In this document: piece by piece, positions 36,964 through 63,781 of the stretch
How positions within the stretch are numbered: position 1 is the stretch's first letter
Layout: every line of letters starts with the position of its first letter
Virus record (IMG/VR): IMGVR_UViG_3300027969_000045
Direction: 5' to 3' (one strand)
Length of the DNA stretch: 64,000 bases
Source of the DNA: a virus
The notes under the pieces: generated by a model
Told to the model about the DNA's origin: nothing
Database searches by the model: none
Seen by the model: the letters and a program-made list of their open reading frames with translations, nothing else
Program-made: the position numbers and the translations under genes

Positions 36964-37036
36964 TGCCTGGTTTGTTCGCACTTTTCGGGTGGGGGAGTAG
37001 AAATGCTCTCCCTTATAAATAGTATTGCGAACAAAC
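36964..37036 (+). promoter_or_regulatory. Structured leader with late promoter for GIY-YIG copy 1
   Basis: gtttgttcgca (36970-36980) pairs perfectly with tgcgaacaaac (37026-37036); inner hairpin 36991-37012; TATAAATA 37014-37021. Confidence 0.7.
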
Positions 37037-37048
37037 AACAGAGCAGAA

Positions 37049-37618
37049 ATGTATTACTACACTTACGCATATTTGCGTGAAGATAAAACTCCTTATTATA
37101 TTGGTAAGGGTAAAGGTAATAGAATTAACTCTAAACAAAGAAGTATAAAACCCCCCAAAGATAAAAGTAGAATAATATACCTCAAACAAAATCTAACTGA
37201 AGCAGAGGCATTTAGACACGAAATCTATATGATTGCTGTGTTCGGTAGAAAGGATTTAGGAACTGGTATTCTTCATAATAGAACTGATGGTGGTGATGGT
37301 GCTTCTGGTACTGTAAGAAGTGTGGAAGTTAAGAAAAAGCAAAGTGAAAGGATGAGTGGAGAAAACAATCCTCACTATGGTAAAAGAGGTAAAGAGGGAC
37401 CTCATTATGGTAAAAAACATACGCAAGAAACAAAAGATAGAATAAGAAAATCTCTACAAGGTAATGTAATTTCCAAAGAAACTAGAATAAAGATTAGTGA
37501 AAAAAATAAACTAAATCAACTTGGAGAAAACAATTCCTTTTATGGGAGAAAACATACAGAAGAAACTAAAAGAAAAATGAGTGAGGCAGCAAAACGAAGA
37601 AAAGAAAAAGGTTCTTGA
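37049..37618 (+). CDS. Free-standing GIY-YIG homing endonuclease with NUMOD3-like repeats
   Basis: YTYAYLR...PYYIGKG..R, E, N..DGG; repeated YGKKHT.ETK..(I/M); start at ATG 37049. Confidence 0.9.
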   Translation: MYYYTYAYLREDKTPYYIGKGKGNRINSKQRSIKPPKDKSRIIYLKQNLTEAEAFRHEIYMIAVFGRKDLGTGILHNRTDGGDGASGTVRSVEVKKKQSERMSGENNPHYGKRGKEGPHYGKKHTQETKDRIRKSLQGNVISKETRIKISEKNKLNQLGENNSFYGRKHTEETKRKMSEAAKRRKEKGS

Positions 37619-45367: not shown

Positions 45368-45395
45368 TATAAATAAGTGTGGTTACTAACCATAC
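45368..45395 (+). promoter_or_regulatory. Late promoter plus short hairpin before the HNH gene
   Basis: TATAAATA 45368-45375, then gtgtggtt-act-aaccatac. Confidence 0.6.
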
Positions 45396-45399
45396 ACAA

Positions 45400-45957
45400 A
45401 TGTTTATAGATACGCACCACATAATACCAAGATCTGAAGGTGGAACTGATGATCCAAAAAATCTTGTTAAACTTCCAAGAAGATTACATCAAGAAGTTCA
45501 TCATCGTAGGTGGTTAGTTGGTGGATCTATTAATGATTTGTATGCTTTCCAAATATTAGGCGGAAATTTATCAGACGATGAATTGAAAAAAATTTATGAA
45601 GATCAAGTTTATAGATGTAAGAGGGATCAAACTAAATTGACTGAATCTAGAATAAATTCTGATAAATGGAAACAATCACATCAAAATGATGAATATAAAC
45701 AAAAGAAAAGAGAACAGAGTATTTTATTAAATAAACTTGGAAAAATTAATTCTAAAGAATCATCAATGCTTATAAGTGAAAAGAAAAAATCGGTGAAAAA
45801 TTACAATTCAAAATTAATTTCAGTTTATGGTAAAATATGGGAGGATGCTTCTAAATGTGTAAGAAGTGGTGGTTCTAATGGATTAAGTTTAAGACAATTG
45901 AGATACCGAGCGAATGAAATTAATTATCCCGATATATTTTATGTGGAGCAAATTTAG
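45400..45957 (+). CDS. Free-standing HNH homing endonuclease
   Basis: THHIIPRSEGGTDDPKNLVKL..RLHQEVH; ATG at 45400 preferred. Confidence 0.85.
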   Translation: MFIDTHHIIPRSEGGTDDPKNLVKLPRRLHQEVHHRRWLVGGSINDLYAFQILGGNLSDDELKKIYEDQVYRCKRDQTKLTESRINSDKWKQSHQNDEYKQKKREQSILLNKLGKINSKESSMLISEKKKSVKNYNSKLISVYGKIWEDASKCVRSGGSNGLSLRQLRYRANEINYPDIFYVEQI

Positions 45958-45959
45958 TT

Positions 45960-46520
45960 ATGGTAATTGATTTAAATTATTTTGTTCAAGTTCATGAAAA
46001 TGCACTGGAAGAAAATGTTTGTGATTTCTTAATTTCATTATTTGATCAAGTTCCAGATAAACACGAGAGAATAGAAAACGAAAGAAAACCAAACTTCACT
46101 CAATTCAATCTTACTGAAAACTGTAAGATCACAGACGAAGTAAATACTGTTCACAATCATTTAATTAAAAAAACTTTTGATTATCGTAATGAATATTATG
46201 ATATGATTGATAAGAGAGTTTTTCCGGAAGAACACGCATTTGAACAATTTCGCATTAAGAGGTACAATAATGATGGCAATGACGAATTTGACACTCACGT
46301 AGATGTTATAGATCACGCAACATCAAGAAGATATTTGGCATTCTTTTGGTATTTGAATGATGTAGAACAGGGAGGAGAAACTAAATTTGCTGATATGATT
46401 ATACAACCAAAGAAAGGGAGTCTTCTTGTATTCCCTCCTCTTTGGATGTTTCCTCACGCAGGATTGCAACCAATAAGCAATCCAAAATATATTTTACACA
46501 CGTATTTGCACTATAAGTAA
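45960..46520 (+). CDS. 2OG-Fe(II) oxygenase
   Basis: HxD (HVD), YLNDVEQGGET, PKKGSLLVFP, distal His. Confidence 0.88.
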   Translation: MVIDLNYFVQVHENALEENVCDFLISLFDQVPDKHERIENERKPNFTQFNLTENCKITDEVNTVHNHLIKKTFDYRNEYYDMIDKRVFPEEHAFEQFRIKRYNNDGNDEFDTHVDVIDHATSRRYLAFFWYLNDVEQGGETKFADMIIQPKKGSLLVFPPLWMFPHAGLQPISNPKYILHTYLHYK

Positions 46521-47152
46521 TGGAAAAAGTCGAAACTACTATTTTAAGAAATTTACTTTTTAATAATGATTATTGTAGAAAAGTATTACCATTTATTAAA
46601 AATGAATATTTTGAAAACCTTCACGAGAAGGTAGTTTTTGAAGAGATTTGTAAGTTTATTGTTGCTTATGATGGTCTTGCGACAAAAGAAGTTCTTTTAA
46701 TTGAAACTGAAAAAAGAACTGATATTACAGAAGATACTTATAAAACAATTTGTGAATATGTTTCTAATTTAGATAATACTCCTGCTGATACGAATTGGGT
46801 TACTGATACTACAGAAAAATGGTGCCGTGATAGAGCAATCTATCTTGCACTTATGGAAAGCATTAAAATTGCTGACGGACAAGATGATAAGAAGAATAGA
46901 GATGCAATTCCAACTATTCTTCAAGAAGCACTTGCTATTTCTTTTGATGACCATATTGGCCACGATTATCTAAACGATTATGAGGACAGATTTAATTCTT
47001 ATCACAGAAAAGAAGATAAAATTTCTTTTGATTTGGAATATTTTAACAAAATTACCAAAGGTGGTATTCCCAATAAAACACTCAATATTGCTTTAGCTGG
47101 TTGCGTTCATCCAGAAACCAGAGTTAAAATCAGATTTAGGAAGATTTCTTGA
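46520..47152 (+). CDS. gp41: Replicative helicase N-terminal fragment (194 aa) fused to a 16-aa N-intein
   Basis: gp41 N-domain up to KTLNIALAG, then CVHPETRVKIRFRKIS*. Confidence 0.93.
   Translation: MEKVETTILRNLLFNNDYCRKVLPFIKNEYFENLHEKVVFEEICKFIVAYDGLATKEVLLIETEKRTDITEDTYKTICEYVSNLDNTPADTNWVTDTTEKWCRDRAIYLALMESIKIADGQDDKKNRDAIPTILQEALAISFDDHIGHDYLNDYEDRFNSYHRKEDKISFDLEYFNKITKGGIPNKTLNIALAGCVHPETRVKIRFRKIS
47102..47152 (+). mobile_element. Split intein N-fragment (atypically short, 16 aa)
   Basis: Cys1 block-A pattern C-V-x-P-x-T-x-V begins exactly inside Walker A. Confidence 0.88.
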
Positions 47153-47804
47153 TTTTGGAGTTTGGTGCTGGTTCTCCAGTTCCAAACTTCCAACCTTCAT
47201 TTAGTTTTATATCAACTTCTTCTGGTGATACTCTTTTCCATCCCTTTGTTCCCGGTAAATGCATTACCTTTTTGCCTTTATGTGCCTTTCCCCCTAATGA
47301 TGCTCGTGTTTTTCTTCCTTCATTAGATGCCCAATAATTGAATTCTGTGGATGCTCTTTGTTTTCCTCCAATTGATGCTCTTTCCTTTCTGCCTTCTTCT
47401 GTACTCCAATAATAGAAATTTTTAGTATTATTGATTAGATATTCTTGTTTTTGTATTTCTATTCCTTTTAGTCTCCAATCTTTTCTTTCTTCTACTGGGA
47501 TTGAGAAGAACCCAATTTGATTATCTCTACAAAATTCTCCTATTATTTTTCTGTGTTGGGGTGTTATATTTGCCCCCAACATTTTCATAGACCTTAAATC
47601 ATTTGGATTTTTATAAATTTTCCAAAGTAAATAATGTGCTATGATATGTTCTCTTACACTTAAATAAGTGAGATTTTCTTCACTATTATCTCCCCCCATA
47701 TGTTTTGGAGTAATATGGTGTTCGTGTATCCCAGAATATTTTTTATAATTGTCTTTTCTTGACCTATTGCTTTCGCATAGATTATAATAGATTTGACTAA
47801 ACAT
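47136..47804 (-). CDS. HNH homing endonuclease (Mob-like), antisense, between the gp41 halves
   Basis: HEHHITPKHMGG.N..ENL..LSVREHIIAH.LLWKIY; purine-rich RBS AGGGGAA before the ATG. Confidence 0.9.
   Translation of the reverse strand: MFSQIYYNLCESNRSRKDNYKKYSGIHEHHITPKHMGGDNSEENLTYLSVREHIIAHYLLWKIYKNPNDLRSMKMLGANITPQHRKIIGEFCRDNQIGFFSIPVEERKDWRLKGIEIQKQEYLINNTKNFYYWSTEEGRKERASIGGKQRASTEFNYWASNEGRKTRASLGGKAHKGKKVMHLPGTKGWKRVSPEEVDIKLNEGWKFGTGEPAPNSKIKKSS
47759..47788 (+). promoter_or_regulatory. Candidate sigma70-like promoter for the IntC-gp41C gene, embedded in the antisense HNH
   Basis: TTGACC-N18-TATAAT, ending 49 nt before the ATG at 47838. Confidence 0.5.
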
Positions 47805-47825
47805 TTCCCCTGTCCCTGCTACTAC

Positions 47826-47833
47826 TATTTATA
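47826..47833 (-). promoter_or_regulatory. Late promoter for the antisense HNH
   Basis: Plus-strand tatttata = minus-strand TATAAATA, 21 nt upstream of the HNH ATG. Confidence 0.75.
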
Positions 47834-47837
47834 CAAA

Positions 47838-48215
47838 ATGTGGATTGAAAAAGAAACATCAATTGCTGAAATCAAAACATTACTTGATAATGGATATGAA
47901 GTGGAGGTCGATTCTCCCGATGGATATGTTCCTGTTAATTTTTTTATTAATAAAGGAATGTACGAAGAATATGAATTGCACTTGTATGATACTACTACTA
48001 AAGTAAAATGTAACGAAAGTCATTTATTTGAAACTAATCAGGGGTGGATTTCTGCTAAATCATTAGAGTATTCTAATTCGTATTGGGAGTTTATTACTAA
48101 AGACGGACTTAGAATTGGTAAGGTTATTAAGACCAATAATCAAATACCTATTGTAGATATTAATGTAAATCATCCAAATCATAGGTATTATACTAATGGG
48201 GTTTCCTCCCATAAT
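47838..48215 (+). mobile_element. Split intein C-fragment (126 aa; carries blocks B, F, G)
   Basis: DSPDGY, block B-like CNESHLF, block F/G VDINV...HRYYTNGVSSHN, +1 Thr. Confidence 0.9.
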
Positions 48216-49010
48216 ACTGGTGTCGGAAAATCTTTGTTTATGTGTCATTTTGCTGCATCAGTTCTTCTTCAAGGAAAAAATGTTTTATACATTACACTTG
48301 AAATGGCAGAGGAAAAGATTGCTGAAAGAATTGACGCAAATCTTCTAAACATTAATATTAAAGACATTGAAACATTACCTAAAATGATGTTTGACTCAAA
48401 AATAAATAGTATTGCGAAGAAGACTCAAGGAACTTTAATTATTAAAGAGTATCCAACTGCTTCCGCACACGCAGGACATTTCAGAGCACTTCTAAATGAA
48501 CTCTCTCTTAAGAAATCATTCAGACCTGATATTATTTTTATTGACTACCTTAATATTTGTGGTTCCTCAAGATATAAGAGTAATTTTTCAGTTAATTCTT
48601 ATTCATATATTAAAGCAATTGCAGAAGAACTTCGTGGTCTTGCAGTTGAAGCAAATGTTCCAATTGTTTCCGCTACTCAAACTACTCGTAGTGGTTTTTC
48701 TAGCTCTGATCCTGATCTTACTGATACTTCTGAATCCTTTGGTCTCCCTGCTACTGCTGATCTTATGTTTGCCCTTATTAGCACAGAAGAGTTGGAACAA
48801 CTCGGGCAGATTATGGTAAAACAATTGAAGAATAGATACAATGACCCAACAATGAATAAAAGATTTGTAGTTGGTATTGACCGTGCGAAGATGAGATTAT
48901 TTGATGTAGAGCAAAGTGCTCAAACCGATATACTTGACTCTGGACAAGAAGAAGAGTATACTTATGAAGAAGATAAACCCAAAAAACAATTCTCTGGATT
49001 TAAATTTTAA
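47838..49010 (+). CDS. gp41: 126-aa C-intein fused to the replicative helicase C-terminal fragment (264 aa)
   Basis: ...HRYYTNGVSSHN|TGVGKSLFMC resumes Walker A; YITLEMAEE, FIDYLNI, SATQTTR, KQLKNRY; ATG at 47838 preferred over the TTG at 47793. Confidence 0.93.
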   Translation: MWIEKETSIAEIKTLLDNGYEVEVDSPDGYVPVNFFINKGMYEEYELHLYDTTTKVKCNESHLFETNQGWISAKSLEYSNSYWEFITKDGLRIGKVIKTNNQIPIVDINVNHPNHRYYTNGVSSHNTGVGKSLFMCHFAASVLLQGKNVLYITLEMAEEKIAERIDANLLNINIKDIETLPKMMFDSKINSIAKKTQGTLIIKEYPTASAHAGHFRALLNELSLKKSFRPDIIFIDYLNICGSSRYKSNFSVNSYSYIKAIAEELRGLAVEANVPIVSATQTTRSGFSSSDPDLTDTSESFGLPATADLMFALISTEELEQLGQIMVKQLKNRYNDPTMNKRFVVGIDRAKMRLFDVEQSAQTDILDSGQEEEYTYEEDKPKKQFSGFKF

Positions 49011-49602: not shown

Positions 49603-49641
49603 AATCCCCCCTCTTTCTAAATATAAGAAAGAGGGGGGATT
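49603..49641 (+). promoter_or_regulatory. Perfect 16-bp hairpin sequestering the RBS, with a late promoter at the loop
   Basis: aatcccccctctttct / agaaagaggggggatt; CTAAATA at 49617-49623; ATG at 49646. Confidence 0.8.
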
Positions 49642-49645
49642 TCTT

Positions 49646-51148
49646 ATGGCAGTTGGAGCTTCTATGAATGAAACATTTTTTGCAATATATTATGTAATTG
49701 CAAAAAAATCTAAAGCAAATAATAAAAGGGATTTTATTTTAAATACTATTGAAATTAATCCTTCTTTTTGGAAAAATTCTTATCTTTTGCCCGGTACATT
49801 ATCCGGAGCTTTAAAAAAACTTGGAATAGATGATGAATTAAGTTCTTTGAATAGTGATATTAGAAGACTTGGTAGGGAAAGGCCCGAAGAAATTTATGAT
49901 TTTTTTGAAAGAAGAAAATGGGACGATTTGTTGAAACAGCAAACAATTAATTTTTCAAAAAATCCTAAAACTGCTTTCATACGAAATAATAATCTTTCAT
50001 TATTGAGAGGTAGTGAATTTTTAGAAAAATCAAATTTAAAAGAATTTTTAAAAAAATTTAGAAAAATTTATTTTGGAGTTTCTGGATTATATAAAGATGA
50101 AAGATGGAATCCAAGTGATATTTGGTTTTATAATCAAAATAGTTTAAAGGAAATACAGGATTACATATCTCAAACATCTATTATAAAAAATGATATAAAA
50201 AATAAAGAAATTATAAAAAATTTAGCATTAGAAGACATCAATGGTCTTAATCAATTAATATTTAAATTATATAAAGATAAAAATTTAGCCCCAATTTCAT
50301 TAAAAAAAGCTTCTCTTGGGGTTGCCGGAAGTTCTTCTTTAAATATTAGTTTGATAAATTCTCCCGAAAAACCATATAGATATAAACCATCACTGGAGAA
50401 AATTACAAACATTAAAAATTCAATAAACTCTAACTCATATGAAATCAATGGCGAACTTTCATTTCAAATAGAAGTAGAACATATTGTTTTAACTGAAACT
50501 GGAAAAAAAGTACCCAAAAAAATAATAGATAAAGTTTTTTATAATGATGCTGGTAATGGATTTAAATCTCAAACCAAAGGTGCCCCAGCTGCTGCAGGAC
50601 AAGTTGGAAAAAAAATAATAGAAAAAAATGTATATACTTCAAATGCATTAAAAAAAATATTAAATATTCGCAAATCAACTATTAAAAATAATTTTAACAA
50701 AAAGGATATAATTAGTAATATTCCTTTAAGTGGAAGAGCACAAAGTCCTACAACTAATTCATCTGTTGAATATTTACAAAAATTAGCAGAAGATGCAGAC
50801 CATTCTTTAATTAATAAAACACCTAATATAAAGTCTTACTTTCCCAACACGTCTGCTCAAGATAAACTTGAAATTAATTTTGCAATTGATAATGCAGGCA
50901 CAAAAAAAGAACAAGATGAAATTAGAATCAATCTTTGGGAATCTTGTACTAGTAGAGGAATTGTAGATAGAAAAGAATATGAAAAAATGGTTACTAGAAT
51001 TGGAGCAAGATTGCATAAAAAATCAAGAAAAAAAGGACAACAAAATATGACTATCCAAGAGGCAGAAAATTTAGCTAAAGATTTGATGAGGGCAAGAAAT
51101 GTCAATCCAACAAGAATACCATCTTCATTTCATATAAAATTATATTGA
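49646..51148 (+). CDS. Putative PD-(D/E)xK-like endonuclease
   Basis: N-terminal helix Glu (MNETF), WNPSDIW and PISLKK motifs; Lys/Asn-rich. Confidence 0.55.
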   Translation: MAVGASMNETFFAIYYVIAKKSKANNKRDFILNTIEINPSFWKNSYLLPGTLSGALKKLGIDDELSSLNSDIRRLGRERPEEIYDFFERRKWDDLLKQQTINFSKNPKTAFIRNNNLSLLRGSEFLEKSNLKEFLKKFRKIYFGVSGLYKDERWNPSDIWFYNQNSLKEIQDYISQTSIIKNDIKNKEIIKNLALEDINGLNQLIFKLYKDKNLAPISLKKASLGVAGSSSLNISLINSPEKPYRYKPSLEKITNIKNSINSNSYEINGELSFQIEVEHIVLTETGKKVPKKIIDKVFYNDAGNGFKSQTKGAPAAAGQVGKKIIEKNVYTSNALKKILNIRKSTIKNNFNKKDIISNIPLSGRAQSPTTNSSVEYLQKLAEDADHSLINKTPNIKSYFPNTSAQDKLEINFAIDNAGTKKEQDEIRINLWESCTSRGIVDRKEYEKMVTRIGARLHKKSRKKGQQNMTIQEAENLAKDLMRARNVNPTRIPSSFHIKLY

Positions 51149-59242: not shown

Positions 59243-60247
59243 ATGAATTTTATTGATCAAAAATACATTGGTCTGGTTTCTTCAAGACTGGAGAAGTTTA
59301 AACAAGTTAAAACTGGACTGTATAATTTTAGATGTGTATATTGTGGGGATTCACAAAAGAATAAAAGCAAGACAAGAGGATATATTTACGGTTATAAGAA
59401 CGATCATAATTACAAGTGTCACAATTGTGGAGTATCTAAATCTTTTACTAATTTTCTAAAAGATATTGACACCACTCTTTATGATCAATATATTATGGAG
59501 AGATATAAGAATGGTTCTACTGGCAAGGGATCTAATACACCGGAACCAAAATTCACCTTTGAAAAACCAAAATTCACAAAAAAAGCATTTGATTTGCCAT
59601 CCATCGCAGAACTAAATAAAGAACATTCGGCAAGAATTTATTTAGAAAACAGAAAAATTCCTCAAGATTTTTTGAGTCAATTATTTTATTGTGAAAAGTT
59701 CAAACAATGGACGAATGAACAAAAAAAAACTTTTGAATCTACAAAATACGATGAACCTAGAATCATCATTCCACTTATCAACAATGGAGAAATATTTGGA
59801 TTTCAGGGTCGTAGTTTAAGTAAGAAACCAAAAGTAAAATACATCACAATTATTCTAGATGAAGATCAACCAAAAATTTATGGATTAAACAGAATTGATT
59901 GGAACAAAACTGTTTATGTTGTAGAAGGTCCATTTGATAGTATGTTTATTGAAAATTCAATTGCGATGGTTGGTGCGGATATTGATAAAATGTTTTTCAT
60001 AGCAAATTTTGAAACCAATTTTGTTATGGTCTATGATAATGAAAAAAGAAATAAAGAGATGGTTGCACGATTAGAAAAAAGCATTGAGATGAAATTTCCT
60101 GTGGTAATTTGGCCAAAAGATTTAAAGGAAAAAGACATTAATGATATTGTATTATCTGGACAAGACGTGGAATCTATGCTAAAATTAAATACTTACCAAG
60201 GATTAGAAGCAAAACTTAAATTTACCAACTGGAAAAAAGTAGCATGA
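59243..60247 (+). CDS. gp61: DNA primase
   Basis: Zinc ribbon CVYCGDS...CHNC, FQGR, TOPRIM EGPFDS, YDNE, KDIND. Confidence 0.95.
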   Translation: MNFIDQKYIGLVSSRLEKFKQVKTGLYNFRCVYCGDSQKNKSKTRGYIYGYKNDHNYKCHNCGVSKSFTNFLKDIDTTLYDQYIMERYKNGSTGKGSNTPEPKFTFEKPKFTKKAFDLPSIAELNKEHSARIYLENRKIPQDFLSQLFYCEKFKQWTNEQKKTFESTKYDEPRIIIPLINNGEIFGFQGRSLSKKPKVKYITIILDEDQPKIYGLNRIDWNKTVYVVEGPFDSMFIENSIAMVGADIDKMFFIANFETNFVMVYDNEKRNKEMVARLEKSIEMKFPVVIWPKDLKEKDINDIVLSGQDVESMLKLNTYQGLEAKLKFTNWKKVA

Positions 60248-61959
60248 GTAACGGCATAAACGTAGTTAAGAGAGATGGGTCTATTGAAAGTTTAGACCTC
60301 AATAAACTTCATTTGATGGTTGAAGAGTCTTGTAAAGACCTTGCTGGAGTGTCTGCATCTCAAGTTGAGATGACTTCTGGAATTCAATTTTATGATGGAA
60401 TTTCAACAAGAGAAGTTCAAGAAATTTTGATCAAATCTGCAGCAGATTTGATTGATTTAGAAAATCCAAATTATCAGTTTGTGGCAGCAAGACTTCTTTT
60501 GTTCTCTGTTCGTAAATCACTTTACGGAAAAATTAAAGATCATCCTACATTCTTTGAACATATTAATAAATGTGTAGATGCAAGTGTTTATGATAAGGAA
60601 ATCTTATCATATTATACGGAAGAAGAACTAAATCGTCTTGGTGATTATATCAAACATAAACGGGATTATCTCTTCACCTATGCCGGTCTTCGTCAAGTTG
60701 TTGATAAATATCTTGTTCAAGATAGAAGCACCGGACAAGTATATGAAACTCCACAGTTCATGTATATGATGATTGCTGCAACAAAATTCTCCCAATATCC
60801 AAAAGAAACTCGTCTTTCATATGTAAAGAGGTACTATGACGCAATATCAAAACACAAAATCAACATCCCAACACCAATTATGGGAGGAGTTAGAACTCCT
60901 TTACGACAATTTGCAAGTTGTGTTCTTGTTGATTCTGATGATACCCTCGATAGCATCGGTCACTCTGATTTGGCTATTTACAAGTACGTTGCTCAAAGGG
61001 CTGGCATCGGTATCAATGCGGGCAGAATACGTGGTATCAATTCTAAAATCAGAGGCGGAGAAGTACAACACACAGGTGTTATTCCCTTCCTTAAAAAGTT
61101 TGAAGCAACTGTCAGAAGTTGCACTCAAAACGGTATCAGAGGTGGTTCAGCAACTGTTCACTTTCCAATCTGGCACCAAGAAATAGAAGACATTATTGTT
61201 CTGAAAAATAATAAGGGAACTGAAGATAATCGTGTTCGTAAGTTAGACTATTCTATTCAAATCAGCAAAATCTTCTATGAACGATTTATCCGCAACGAAG
61301 AAATCACACTCTTCTCTCCCCACGATGTTCCTGGTCTTTATGATGCTTTTGGCACTGATGGATTTGACGACCTTTATGTGGGTTATGAACGAAATGAATC
61401 TATTCCAAGAAAAACTATCGGTGCTCAAGAACTCTTTCTGGACCTTCTAAAAGAACGTGCAGAAACAGGTCGTATTTATATTATGAATATTGACCATTGT
61501 AATTCTCATAGTTCTTTTCTTGATAAGGTTTCAATGAGTAACCTTTGTGTTGCTGGTGATACAAAGATTAAAATCAAATACCCAAAAGCAATATATGATG
61601 ATATTGGAGAGATTTATGATTGGAAAGTTTATGAAGAAGAAATTGAGATTGGAGATCTGGATGAATATATTAGTTCCAGAGAAATTAGAGTTATGTCTTA
61701 TAAAGTAAGTGATAATGATCCTTGTGAGGATGTTCCTCAAATAGAAGTTCTTTCTTATAATACAGAAACTAATCAACAAGAATGGGCACCTATTACAGCA
61801 TTTGCCGAAACATCACCAAAAGCAAAGGTAATGAGAATTACTGATGAAGAAAGTGGTAAGAGTATTGTAGTGACACCAGAGCATAAAGTATTCACAAAAA
61901 ATCGTGGATATGTAATGGCAAAAGACCTAACCGAAACTGATGAGTTGGCAATCAACTAA
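60244..61959 (+). CDS. nrdA: Class Ia ribonucleotide reductase alpha N-fragment (434 aa) fused to a 137-aa N-intein
   Basis: ATP cone VVKRDG, PTPIMGG, FASCVL, ends SMSNL|CVAGDT... Confidence 0.95.
   Translation: MSNGINVVKRDGSIESLDLNKLHLMVEESCKDLAGVSASQVEMTSGIQFYDGISTREVQEILIKSAADLIDLENPNYQFVAARLLLFSVRKSLYGKIKDHPTFFEHINKCVDASVYDKEILSYYTEEELNRLGDYIKHKRDYLFTYAGLRQVVDKYLVQDRSTGQVYETPQFMYMMIAATKFSQYPKETRLSYVKRYYDAISKHKINIPTPIMGGVRTPLRQFASCVLVDSDDTLDSIGHSDLAIYKYVAQRAGIGINAGRIRGINSKIRGGEVQHTGVIPFLKKFEATVRSCTQNGIRGGSATVHFPIWHQEIEDIIVLKNNKGTEDNRVRKLDYSIQISKIFYERFIRNEEITLFSPHDVPGLYDAFGTDGFDDLYVGYERNESIPRKTIGAQELFLDLLKERAETGRIYIMNIDHCNSHSSFLDKVSMSNLCVAGDTKIKIKYPKAIYDDIGEIYDWKVYEEEIEIGDLDEYISSREIRVMSYKVSDNDPCEDVPQIEVLSYNTETNQQEWAPITAFAETSPKAKVMRITDEESGKSIVVTPEHKVFTKNRGYVMAKDLTETDELAIN
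61546..61959 (+). mobile_element. Split intein N-fragment (137 aa)
   Basis: CVAGDTKI block A; VTPEHKVFT block B (TxxH); GYVMAKDL. Confidence 0.93.
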
Positions 61960-61963
61960 TATG

Positions 61964-62017
61964 ATAGGAAGTGTAATTTCTATATTTTATAAATAGTTAT
62001 GAGATTACACTTCCTAT
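61964..62017 (+). promoter_or_regulatory. 17-bp hairpin with the late promoter in its loop, before the GIY-YIG gene
   Basis: ataggaagtgtaatttc / gagattacacttcctat (one G-U); TATAAATA 61988-61995; ATG at 62019. Confidence 0.8.
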
Positions 62018-62018
62018 A

Positions 62019-62693
62019 ATGAAAACATATATTGTTTATAAAATTACCAATAAGAATAACGGAAAATCTTACATAGGAAAAACTGAATACTCATTAGAAC
62101 ATCGTTGGAATCGTCATTTATCATCGGCAAGAAATGGTTCTAAATTTAGATTTCATTCTGCTATTAGAAAATATGGTGAAGATTGTTGGGACTTATCTGT
62201 GATTGAAACCTATCTGACCGAAGATGAAAACTTTATTAACGAAAAAGAAACTCACTTTATTAAACTCTTTGAAAGTGATACTAAAAAAGGTTATAATGCT
62301 ACTTCAGGTGGAACTGGTGGATGGATGCTTCCCAAATGCTCTCCGGAGGTTCAGGAAGAATGGAGAAACAATATTTCTATAAGAACTACTGGTTCCAACA
62401 ATCCAAACCATTCTGGATATACTGATGAGCAACTTATAGAAATAGGTGTAAAGTTTGTTAAAAAATTTGGATTTATTGGTGGTAGAACGAGAATAGTTGA
62501 TTTTGCCAGTAATGAATTGAATATAAAGTTTCCAAAACATTTTTCTAAAAATAGATTTGGAGGAAACCATCAAAACTTTTATAAATCTATTGAAGAACAG
62601 ACTGGATTGGTGTATAATTCATATTATAGAGACGAAACTCAAAGAACACTTGCTAAACAACTTTTAGAACAAAACAGGAGAAAAAAATGCTAA
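62019..62693 (+). CDS. GIY-YIG homing endonuclease between the nrdA halves
   Basis: IVYKITN..NGKSYIGKT, R..RH, E, GYN..GG. Confidence 0.9.
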   Translation: MKTYIVYKITNKNNGKSYIGKTEYSLEHRWNRHLSSARNGSKFRFHSAIRKYGEDCWDLSVIETYLTEDENFINEKETHFIKLFESDTKKGYNATSGGTGGWMLPKCSPEVQEEWRNNISIRTTGSNNPNHSGYTDEQLIEIGVKFVKKFGFIGGRTRIVDFASNELNIKFPKHFSKNRFGGNHQNFYKSIEEQTGLVYNSYYRDETQRTLAKQLLEQNRRKKC

Positions 62694-62785
62694 AGATTGA
62701 ATATCTTGAAGAAGAAATTCCAGTTTATGATATTACTGTAGAAGGAACACACAATTTCTTTGCAAATAATATTCTGGTCCATAAT
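62687..62785 (+). mobile_element. Split intein C-fragment (33 aa)
   Basis: VYDITVEGTHNFFANNILVHN blocks F/G, +1 Cys. Confidence 0.93.
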
Positions 62786-63781
62786 TGCCAAGAGATTACA
62801 CTTCCCACCAAACCTCTTCAACATATTGATGATCCAGATGGAGAGATTGCTCTCTGTATTCTTTCTGCAATCAATGTGGGTAAAGTTAAGGATGATAGTG
62901 AATTTGAAGAACTTTGTGATTTGGCTGTTCGTGGGTTGGAAGAACTCATTGATTATCAGCAATATCCAATAGTTGCTGCTGAAAAATCAACAAAAGCACG
63001 TAGATCTCTTGGTGTTGGATTTATTGGTTTGGCACATTATCTTGCTAAACTTGGTTTTGATTATGATTCTCAAGAAGCATGGGATGCAGTTCATAGTCTT
63101 TCTGAATCATTCCAATATTTCTTACTCAAATCTTCTAATCAGATTGCCAAAGAAAAAGGTGCTTGTGAATATTTCAATCGCACAAAGTATTCCCAAGGAA
63201 TTCTTCCAATTGATACATACAAAAAGGATGTTGATGAACTGTCAAATCCAACTCTTCAACACGATTGGGAAACACTTAGAGAAGATATAAAACTGTATGG
63301 TCTTAGACACTCCACACTATCCGCACAGATGCCCTCTGAGAGCAGTTCAGTCGTCTCTAATGCAACTAATGGAATTGAACCCCCTAGAGGTTATTTGTCC
63401 GTCAAACAGTCTAAAAAAGGTCCTCTCAAGCAAATTGTTCCACAGTTTCAAAGTCTTAAAAACAATTATACGCTTCTTTGGGATATGCCTAGCAATCGTG
63501 GTTATATTAATATTGTTGCAGTTATGCAAAAATTCTTTGATCAAGCGATTTCTGGAAACTGGTCATATAATCCGGAGAATTATCCCGATAATGAAGTTCC
63601 TGTTAGCGTAATGGCACAAGATATGCTCACTTGCTTTAAGTATGGGCACAAAACAGCATATTATCAGAATACTTATGATGGTAAGTCCGATGAAATCAAA
63701 GAAGAAAAATCCAACCTTGACAGTTTAGTGCAGGACATACTAAACTCTAATGAAGATGACTGTGAGAGTTGTAAAATTTGA
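62687..63781 (+). CDS. nrdA: 33-aa C-intein fused to the ribonucleotide reductase alpha C-fragment (331 aa)
   Basis: ...NNILVHN|CQEITLP; ALCILSA, MPSESSS, KTAYY, C-terminal CESC; AGGAG RBS at 62676-62680. Confidence 0.95.
   Translation: MLKIEYLEEEIPVYDITVEGTHNFFANNILVHNCQEITLPTKPLQHIDDPDGEIALCILSAINVGKVKDDSEFEELCDLAVRGLEELIDYQQYPIVAAEKSTKARRSLGVGFIGLAHYLAKLGFDYDSQEAWDAVHSLSESFQYFLLKSSNQIAKEKGACEYFNRTKYSQGILPIDTYKKDVDELSNPTLQHDWETLREDIKLYGLRHSTLSAQMPSESSSVVSNATNGIEPPRGYLSVKQSKKGPLKQIVPQFQSLKNNYTLLWDMPSNRGYINIVAVMQKFFDQAISGNWSYNPENYPDNEVPVSVMAQDMLTCFKYGHKTAYYQNTYDGKSDEIKEEKSNLDSLVQDILNSNEDDCESCKI

Follow-up and report, generated by a model that had tools for sequence, protein, structure and literature searches.

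An antisense HNH endonuclease gene that probably invaded an intein and fractured the gp41 helicase gene of a T4-like cyanophage

Introduction

How can a conserved gene come to lie in two pieces with a gene of the opposite strand between them, and how might both pieces be expressed? The question is raised by the helicase gene gp41 in IMG/VR virus record IMGVR_UViG_3300027969_000045, a stretch of 64,000 nucleotides (nt) of viral DNA that is called the window below. The window segment is that of a T4-like cyanomyovirus, with the gene order gp43, UvsX, plus-strand HNH, 2OG-Fe(II) oxygenase, gp41 and MazG. Its gp41 is interrupted by an intein whose N-terminal and C-terminal halves (IntN and IntC) belong to separate open reading frames (ORFs), and an antisense gene for a Mob-like HNH homing endonuclease fills the gap. 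An original prediction, made from the letters of the window, held that such a gene had invaded a contiguous mini-intein after about residue 12-16 and had brought with it the stop codon of IntN and an early promoter for the downstream half of the helicase. The comparison with relatives reported here makes it likely that an HNH cassette invaded an intein of the VidaL family, fractured gp41 and supplied putative expression signals to the broken gene, which is the best explanation overall.

Results

The fractured gp41 locus

The N-extein of gp41 (194 aa, 46520-47101, plus strand) ends in ...NIALAG and runs on into IntN, which consists of 16 aa (CVHPETRVKIRFRKIS) and a TGA stop (47102-47152, plus strand). 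The ORF of gp41-N and IntN (46520-47152) is separate from that of IntC and the C-terminal part of gp41 (gp41C), located at 47838-49010 on the same strand. In the latter, IntC (126 aa, MWIEKE...GVSSHN, 47838-48215) ends in HN followed by Thr+1, and the C-extein (48216-49010) begins with the TGVGKS of the Walker A motif and carries a DnaB_C domain (Pfam, 5.5e-18). The joined exteins, ...NIALAG/TGVGKS..., match exactly the uninterrupted gp41 of the intein-less Synechococcus phage S-SSM7, which places the intein inside Walker A with Thr at the +1 position. The residues of a class 1 intein (HINT) were all present, namely Cys1 at 47102, ...NESH... and the terminal SSHN in IntC, and Thr+1 at 48216. 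The best match of IntC in the PDB was the VidaL intein (6vgv, E 1e-10), and homology extended to the Spl DnaX and gp41-1 inteins. The alignment opens with residue 4 of IntC opposite residue 23 of VidaL (fused chain). This is the S1 type of split, with the break directly after strand beta-2 and an IntN of 16 aa, and all split relatives begin at query residues 16-18.

IntN, the HNH gene and IntC were all found between the gp41 halves. As in fractured genes described earlier, a conserved gene is present as two ORFs in the original order at one locus; unlike in those, the endonuclease gene occupies the opposite strand, and its overlap is a tail-to-tail one with IntN. Judged by sequence, the gp41 helicase gene is fractured here in a variant of the published arrangement.

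The antisense endonuclease gene

The HNH gene encodes 222 aa and reads from 47804 down to 47136 on the minus strand, stop codon included. Its last five codons and its stop (47136-47138) lie in IntN DNA, outside the inserted cassette described below, so that with the IntN stop at 47150-47152 the two genes overlap by 17 nt. The original prediction, whose listed sequence features were all found where it had placed them, had seen this overlap and had called the HNH gene the only convincing minus-strand gene in the window. As far as this could be tested it holds, since all other minus-strand ORFs of at least 100 aa were nested in plus-strand genes or had no family match.

The protein matched phrog_655 ('homing endonuclease', E 2e-15), and tblastn with it retrieved T4-type genes annotated by their depositors as 'Mob-like HNH homing endonuclease'. 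Residues H27, H29, H30, N44, H53 and H57 were invariant in 11 diverse members of the family. The ratio of nonsynonymous to synonymous substitution rates (dN/dS) had a median of 0.14 among 17 alleles, which indicates a real coding gene under strong purifying selection. A duplicated motif that had already been noticed, ...W-S-T-E-E-G-R-K-E-R-A-S-I-G-G-K and ...W-A-S-N-E-G-R-K-T-R-A-S-L-G-G-K, is conserved across the family in both copies; its interpretation as a NUMOD module was rejected, as no Pfam match was obtained even at E 5. Some results weigh against the assignment. The match to Pfam HNH (PF01844) stayed below threshold, with 16.7 bits against a cut-off of 21.4, and Foldseek searches of the PDB with the AlphaFold model (mean predicted local distance difference test score, pLDDT, 72; predicted template modelling score, pTM, 0.40) gave HNH domains in the top rows only at E values of 0.3 or worse and so lend the assignment weak support. 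A relative of the protein from locus L007 cleared the Pfam cut-off with 22.7 bits.

Contiguous counterparts and the borders of the cassette

Some relatives have an unbroken, contiguous intein in this Walker A position, and the window differs from them by exactly one segment, a cassette of 688 bp (47152-47839) inserted after intein residue 16. The contiguous inteins of L048, L057, L058 and L060-62 are in frame and read ...RFRKIS-W-WIEKE..., and those of the close syntenic relatives L154 and L155 read RFRKIS-L-WIEKE and RFRKIK-WIEKE. In L154 and L155 the identity of the flanks to the window is 94% and 92%, and it holds as far as the borders on either side (47150 on the left, 47839 on the right). 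At the nucleotide level the window has TCT TG/A...688 bp...AT/G TGG ATT (slashes at the borders), compared with TCT TGG TGG ATT in alleles of the L048 type and TCT TTG TGG ATT in L154; with the TTG-type allele as the reference, the borders move by 1 nt (47151-47838). A single codon, TGG or TTG, is thus split by the cassette, and the TGA of IntN and the ATG of IntC are hybrid border codons; in the stop, TG belongs to the intein, and the cassette opens with the A. The original prediction that the cassette had brought the IntN stop therefore stands in part: the stop arises at the insertion, as a hybrid codon rather than one carried whole.

A profile-free search run exhaustively over 1.84 billion cluster representatives yielded, among 150 representatives, at least 22 clusters (50% identity) with a contiguous intein near residue 195 of gp41-like proteins of roughly 550-735 aa, and at least 19 clusters of IntC-gp41C proteins starting at the S1 site. 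In the deep contiguous lineages, beta-2 is followed by a loop that varies in both length and sequence.

Other states of the locus

IMG/VR contained at least 80 loci with an IntC of the window type and 73 with an HNH gene of the window type, and the protein database 713 IntC homologs; in the INPHARED copy of deposited phage genomes neither the intein nor the HNH gene was found. Most IMG/VR loci share the arrangement of the window, including some in far more distant T4-like phages with HNH homologs down to 39% identity. In loci of the L007 type such a 39%-identical HNH gene occupies the same position, and in L073 (791-1444) a different HNH-like gene without a match in PHROG lies on the gp41 sense strand between the same intein halves. 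The relatives were sampled by seeding with the window's own IntC and HNH gene, up to a limit of 80 loci, which biases the frequencies of allele states; the extein tree, built with FastTree, has the same bias and was left aside in judging direction.

In about 20 loci (among them L013, L026, L030, L038, L045, L046 and L056) one extra plus-strand ORF was found between the IntN stop and the 3' end of the HNH gene, with the helicase halves up to 1.6 kb apart. These cargo ORFs include a 123-aa HExxH-like protein and a family beginning MDAQ(E/D)FR(S/N)LQEAYMEVV; a search with five of them from relatives assigned no Pfam family, and many cargo alleles have a TATAAATA-like motif directly after the IntN stop. 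L031 and L051 carry a decayed HNH gene, of which only an internally deleted form is left.

The original prediction had counted split alleles without an HNH gene or remnant as evidence against an invasion. Four alleles without a homing endonuclease gene (HEG), L002, L021, L069 and L070, formally fit that description, but they look like secondary losses, and the criterion was too strict. L069 and L070 read TCT TGA TT ATG, retaining bases of the cassette end, and the IntN tail of L002, RFRKLK, is the left junction of the cargo type; in L021 no cassette footprint was recognised. The reading of HEG-less splits as a refutation of the invasion was rejected on account of the footprints in L069/L070 and L002. 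In the sequences of the relatives nearly every stage of what appears to be the gain and loss of the cassette is preserved.

Signs of mobility

The cassette shows presence/absence polymorphism at one exact site, and its identity among loci can be out of step with that of the surrounding helicase. Over 47096-47972, 9 of 877 nt differ between the window and L003 (99% identity); outside this tract the identity falls to 60-85% on the left, and divergence is dense on the right. As the tract stops 45 codons into IntC, the recipient must already have had an intein. In a comparison of 49 loci, 32 locus pairs had HNH genes at least 95% identical while their exteins were no more than 80% identical, and the HNH gene, with or without IntC, was 95-100% identical between helicases of 73-80% identity. 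The near-identical tracts of L028/L035 and L009/L011 cover the HNH gene and the whole of IntC and end near the junction of IntC and extein. These mosaics indicate that the HNH gene has recently moved, together with part or all of the intein, between diverged helicases. They are the signature expected of homing with co-conversion, and ordinary recombination is a possible alternative source. Two possible targets of the nuclease are the loop DNA of the contiguous intein and the intein-less Walker A DNA, of which the original prediction had proposed the second.

Promoter motifs of both strands

A late promoter motif of the T4 type, which reads TATAAATA on the minus strand and TATTTATA on the plus strand, extends from 47833 to 47826, 21 nt upstream of the HNH ATG (47804) and, as already pointed out in the original prediction, only 4 nt from the IntC ATG (47838). 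NATAAATA is the accepted late promoter of cyanomyoviruses, in which early genes have sigma70-like motifs (PMC2984593). The bare octamer showed no enrichment in the window (14 occurrences, against 8.9 expected), and its significance here lies in position and conservation. It was conserved upstream of the HNH gene in nearly all HNH-bearing close relatives, and among the distant lineages examined most had a motif of this type ahead of the gene as well (TATAAATA itself in three, variants in the others). The motif is probably the late promoter of the HNH gene. Between it and the start codon lies a purine-rich leader, GCAGGGACAGGGGAA (CAGGGACAGGGGAA; 47819-47805, minus strand), conserved in relatives as CAGG(G/A)ACAGG(G/A)GA and probably the ribosome-binding region. 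A leader hairpin sequestering the ribosome-binding site, as in the loci of Dassa et al. and in Aeh1 mobE, was considered and rejected, because the fold of 47836 to 47780 (-6.3 kcal/mol, z -0.9) was not significant; some distant relatives have, by eye, a seemingly hairpin-like inverted repeat after TATAAATA.

On the plus strand a sigma70-like motif, TTGACC (47759-47764), an 18-nt spacer and TATAAT (47783-47788), points at IntC-gp41C and is antisense to codons 6-16 of the HNH gene. Like the late motif, it had been part of the original prediction and proved to be conserved in relatives. It has 11 of 12 matches and is the best in 7 kb. In the 130 nt upstream of IntC, 44 of 58 unique relatives had a motif with at least 10 of 12 matches, usually 46-62 nt from the IntC start; distant lineages in which the spacer is longer are missed by a span of this size. 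The 44 include loci with a divergent HNH gene and two loci with HNH remnants, and the HEG-less loci lack the motif. In 11 of 13 lineages (41-85% identity) a motif with 9-11 of 12 matches is kept in the register of the HNH codons, with the -10 element at sense nt 17-22 and the -35 element at nt 40-46. The hexamers take in four third-codon positions, none of which varies, compared with a background of 40%. From this comparative evidence a functional promoter is probably embedded antisense in the HNH gene.

Other endonuclease genes in the window

The window also contains a fractured gene of the canonical kind, that of NrdA (60244-63781), in which the N-part with the intein N-half (60244-61959) is followed by a GIY-YIG gene on the same strand (62019-62693) that overlaps the ORF of IntC and the NrdA C-part (62687-63781) by 7 nt. 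As both NrdA and gp41 are fractured, one phage carries a canonical and an atypical fractured gene. A second HNH gene, on the plus strand at 45368-45957 between uvsX and the 2OG-Fe(II) oxygenase gene, matched phrog_655 and Pfam HNH (2.2e-5). A TATAAATA motif at 45368-45375 abuts its listed GTG start, and the true start may be an internal Met. An ORF at 37025-37618 that adjoins the pyrimidine-dimer glycosylase gene has three NUMOD3 motifs (Pfam 3.4e-20) and TATAAATA before it at 37014-37021, and is another free-standing gene of the endonuclease type. In L154 (1-1835), the closest relative with a contiguous intein, an HNH ORF at 1-487 is followed by a DNA_pol_B ORF of 448 aa; the HNH gene appears to precede or interrupt gp43, which may be fractured there. 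A perfect 16-bp GC-rich inverted repeat was observed at 49603-49641, just upstream of a 500-aa ORF starting at 49646, where it covers the GAGGGGGG ribosome-binding site of that ORF.

Discussion

The locus can best be explained by the following sequence of events. A class 1 mini-intein of the VidaL family would have resided in the Walker A loop (AG/TGVGKS), and a free-standing HNH cassette of 688 bp would have entered it in the opposite orientation, in the loop after the second beta-strand. By splitting a TGG or TTG codon, the insertion would have given gp41N-IntN its terminal TGA and IntC-gp41C its initial ATG. The two gp41 halves would since be made separately and, to judge from the homology to VidaL, trans-spliced to an intact helicase. 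The HNH gene would probably be transcribed late from its own TATAAATA. The mosaic identity tracts suggest that the nuclease probably cuts cassette-free alleles in mixed infections, and that the recipient then acquires a copy of the cassette through repair, along with part or all of IntC. The sigma70-like promoter, situated in the first 50 nt or so of the HNH coding sequence and about 50 nt upstream of the IntC start, probably aids expression of the downstream helicase half, as its conservation suggests. Gain, decay and loss, and probably re-fusion, would all be going on within the cyanophage clade.

The reverse order of events has to be considered: the split intein with its antisense HNH gene could be ancestral, and the contiguous alleles could be re-fusions that arose when the cassette was deleted in frame. 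The HNH homologs retrieved, the most divergent at 39% identity, do all sit in the same split arrangement, and the contiguous alleles L154 and L155 are tips beside HNH-bearing alleles in the extein tree. The junction of L155, RFRKIK-W, moreover resembles the cargo-type tail RFRKLK and equals the HEG-less L002 minus 5 nt, and deletions clearly occur (L069, L031, L051). However, the loci were collected with the HNH gene and IntC of the split allele as seeds, and the contiguous gp41 clusters range to identities as low as about 35-40%. The loops that follow beta-2 in them are long, mutually unrelated and without cassette remnants, and a deletion that leaves exactly one junction codon without microhomology is improbable. 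We therefore consider the reverse order distinctly unlikely as the history of the system, the origin of which was most likely the invasion of a contiguous intein. For the window allele itself, insertion and the derivation of contiguous alleles by re-fusion are both possible directions; of the original claim of an invasion after residue 12-16, the position is borne out, after residue 16, and the direction is one of these two possibilities for this allele.

Two further objections concern what the cassette does. The TTGAC-N17/18-TAnnnT motif could be a by-product of HNH codons in AT-rich DNA, with IntC-gp41C expressed by upstream read-through alone. Several observations weigh in this sense against a promoter function. 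The -10 element lies under the conserved codons I-Y-(Y/S)-N-L (I-Y-x-N-L), which could explain it in part by coding; the remaining genes of the neighbourhood all share the plus strand, so that transcripts entering from upstream could serve the C-half; promoter-like sites in the 7-kb region are as many as chance predicts (35, against 34.8 expected); HEG-less split alleles do without the motif; and the IntC start has no Shine-Dalgarno sequence, as is likewise the case for 32 of the 55 window genes. On the other hand, plus-strand sites with at least 11 of 12 matches are enriched about four-fold in the window (8 observed, this one included, where Markov simulations predict 1.8) and tend to lie in front of genes. 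The -35 element is kept although the residues under it differ (RSR, KSR, CKR, SQL, SKL, CQR), and the codon of Lys14 is AAG in all 14 alleles with Lys at this place, while Lys 17, 21 and 22 use AAA. Co-oriented Mob-like homologs have no good -35 element and reach 8-9 of 12 matches, in a control set that is small (five genes), and the decayed HNH genes retain exactly this 5' segment. A coding by-product appears unlikely in view of these results. The other objection is that the HNH gene may be a domesticated or decaying passenger that no longer homes, with the mosaics produced by ordinary recombination of co-infecting phages. The window protein lacks the extra C-terminal I-TevI-type DNA-binding domain (PF20987, helix-turn-helix) of some longer relatives, which also counts against an active nuclease, and tract borders vary. 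The low dN/dS and the invariant catalytic residues argue against a passenger, as do near-identical tracts centred on the HNH gene in several independent pairs and the fact that the truncated 222-aa form is the commonest one, 99% identical across diverged backgrounds. Loss of homing is accordingly very improbable, and the invasion by a mobile HNH cassette that carries a promoter remains the preferred explanation.

Taken together, these features allow a wider reading that is possible but on balance doubtful. The cassette might be a parasite of the intein that is hard to lose: it would cut the essential C-half of the helicase off from the upstream translation signals and supply a promoter for that half inside its own first 16 codons, on the opposite strand, and selection on the helicase would then keep the 5' end of the HNH gene even after the nuclease has decayed, as in L031 and L051. 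The early (plus) and late (minus) promoters, face to face and with transcripts that would overlap by about 25 nt, could form a temporal switch that silences the nuclease until replication is under way, and the gap between the helicase halves could serve as a landing pad for cargo genes with late promoters.

A homing endonuclease gene that inserts into the variable loop after beta-2 would be a natural explanation for atypically split inteins with an ultra-short IntN. Inteins of the VidaL type are valued for protein semisynthesis, and the hundreds of natural S1-split variants could be a resource. Since contiguous, occupied, decayed, emptied and cargo alleles segregate in public metagenomes, the gene-breaking model can be tested with matched alleles. 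The locus also suggests that the gene of a fracturing endonuclease can run antisense to its host gene and contain, within its own codons, a promoter for that gene. The general view of inteins and homing endonucleases is not altered by these results.

Comparison with known systems

VidaL (PDB 6vgv/6vgw) is the closest solved relative of the window intein and shares with it the S1 split, the 16-aa IntN and Cys1, at an identity of roughly one third as estimated by eye from the alignment. Burton and colleagues reportedly described VidaL as an atypically split intein in PNAS in 2020. Its source was presumably a T4-like helicase or UvsX gene from a Lake Vida metagenome. VidaL has a 16-aa IntN and an S1 break after beta-2 and splices fast in vitro (PMC13014065). 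AceL-TerL and GOS-TerL (IntN 25-37 aa, S2 site) and PolB16 OarG (IntN 15 aa) likewise combine a short IntN with a long IntC and come from phage-like metagenomic DNA, but their exteins and intein families differ, the TerL inteins are split after helix alpha-1 and PolB16 is cysteine-less.

T4-type Mob HNH endonucleases have a homologous N-terminal HNH domain, and their genes are free-standing, lie in loci of replication and nucleotide metabolism and are under late-promoter control. They are co-oriented with their neighbours and lack an antisense promoter motif, whereas the HNH gene of the window is antisense. In Aeh1 an HNH gene splits nrdA, according to the account of Gibb & Edgell given in PMC2677866. 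Like the HNH gene of the window it splits a host gene, but there is no intein at that locus. The free-standing endonuclease F-CphI is said to act with the psbA intron in 'collaborative homing', as reportedly put forward by Zeng, Bonocora and Shub in 2009. Both systems tie a free-standing endonuclease gene to a self-splicing element in a cyanomyovirus; with F-CphI the element is an intron, not an intein, and the endonuclease lies beside it. Antisense transcription across an endonuclease gene is documented for the CfrI antisense RNA of cyanophage S-PM2 (PMC2984593), which differs in being a separate small transcript.

The closest precedent is the set of 26 'fractured genes' of Dassa et al. (2009, NAR), which includes cyanophage-like gp41 (gp41-1 to gp41-9) (PMC2677866). 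According to the model published there, an intein is invaded by a free-standing endonuclease gene, which fractures the host gene, brings control elements and may later be lost (PMC2677866), so that the original prediction overstated the novelty of an endonuclease-driven intein invasion with control elements. In those loci three ORFs lie on one strand, the endonucleases are of the GIY-YIG or Vsr-like type, the 3' end of the endonuclease gene overlaps IntC, the break is at the canonical site except in one terminase, and IntN has 88-105 aa; fracturing by an HNH gene was predicted but not observed in the set (PMC2677866). As in the window, a TATAAATA late promoter precedes the endonuclease gene, and HEG-less split alleles are known (gp41-7). 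The window differs from them in the HNH type of its endonuclease, the antisense gene, the break after residue 16, the tail-to-tail overlap with IntN and the availability of contiguous counterparts, and its intein lies in Walker A, while gp41-1 to gp41-7 are inserted at a different gp41 position. A literature search, the scope of which did not extend to the VidaL discovery paper, found no description of this arrangement. The general model is already published; as far as can be read from the locus and its relatives, what is new is the HNH type, the antisense orientation, the S1 split, the insertion in Walker A and the embedded antisense promoter.

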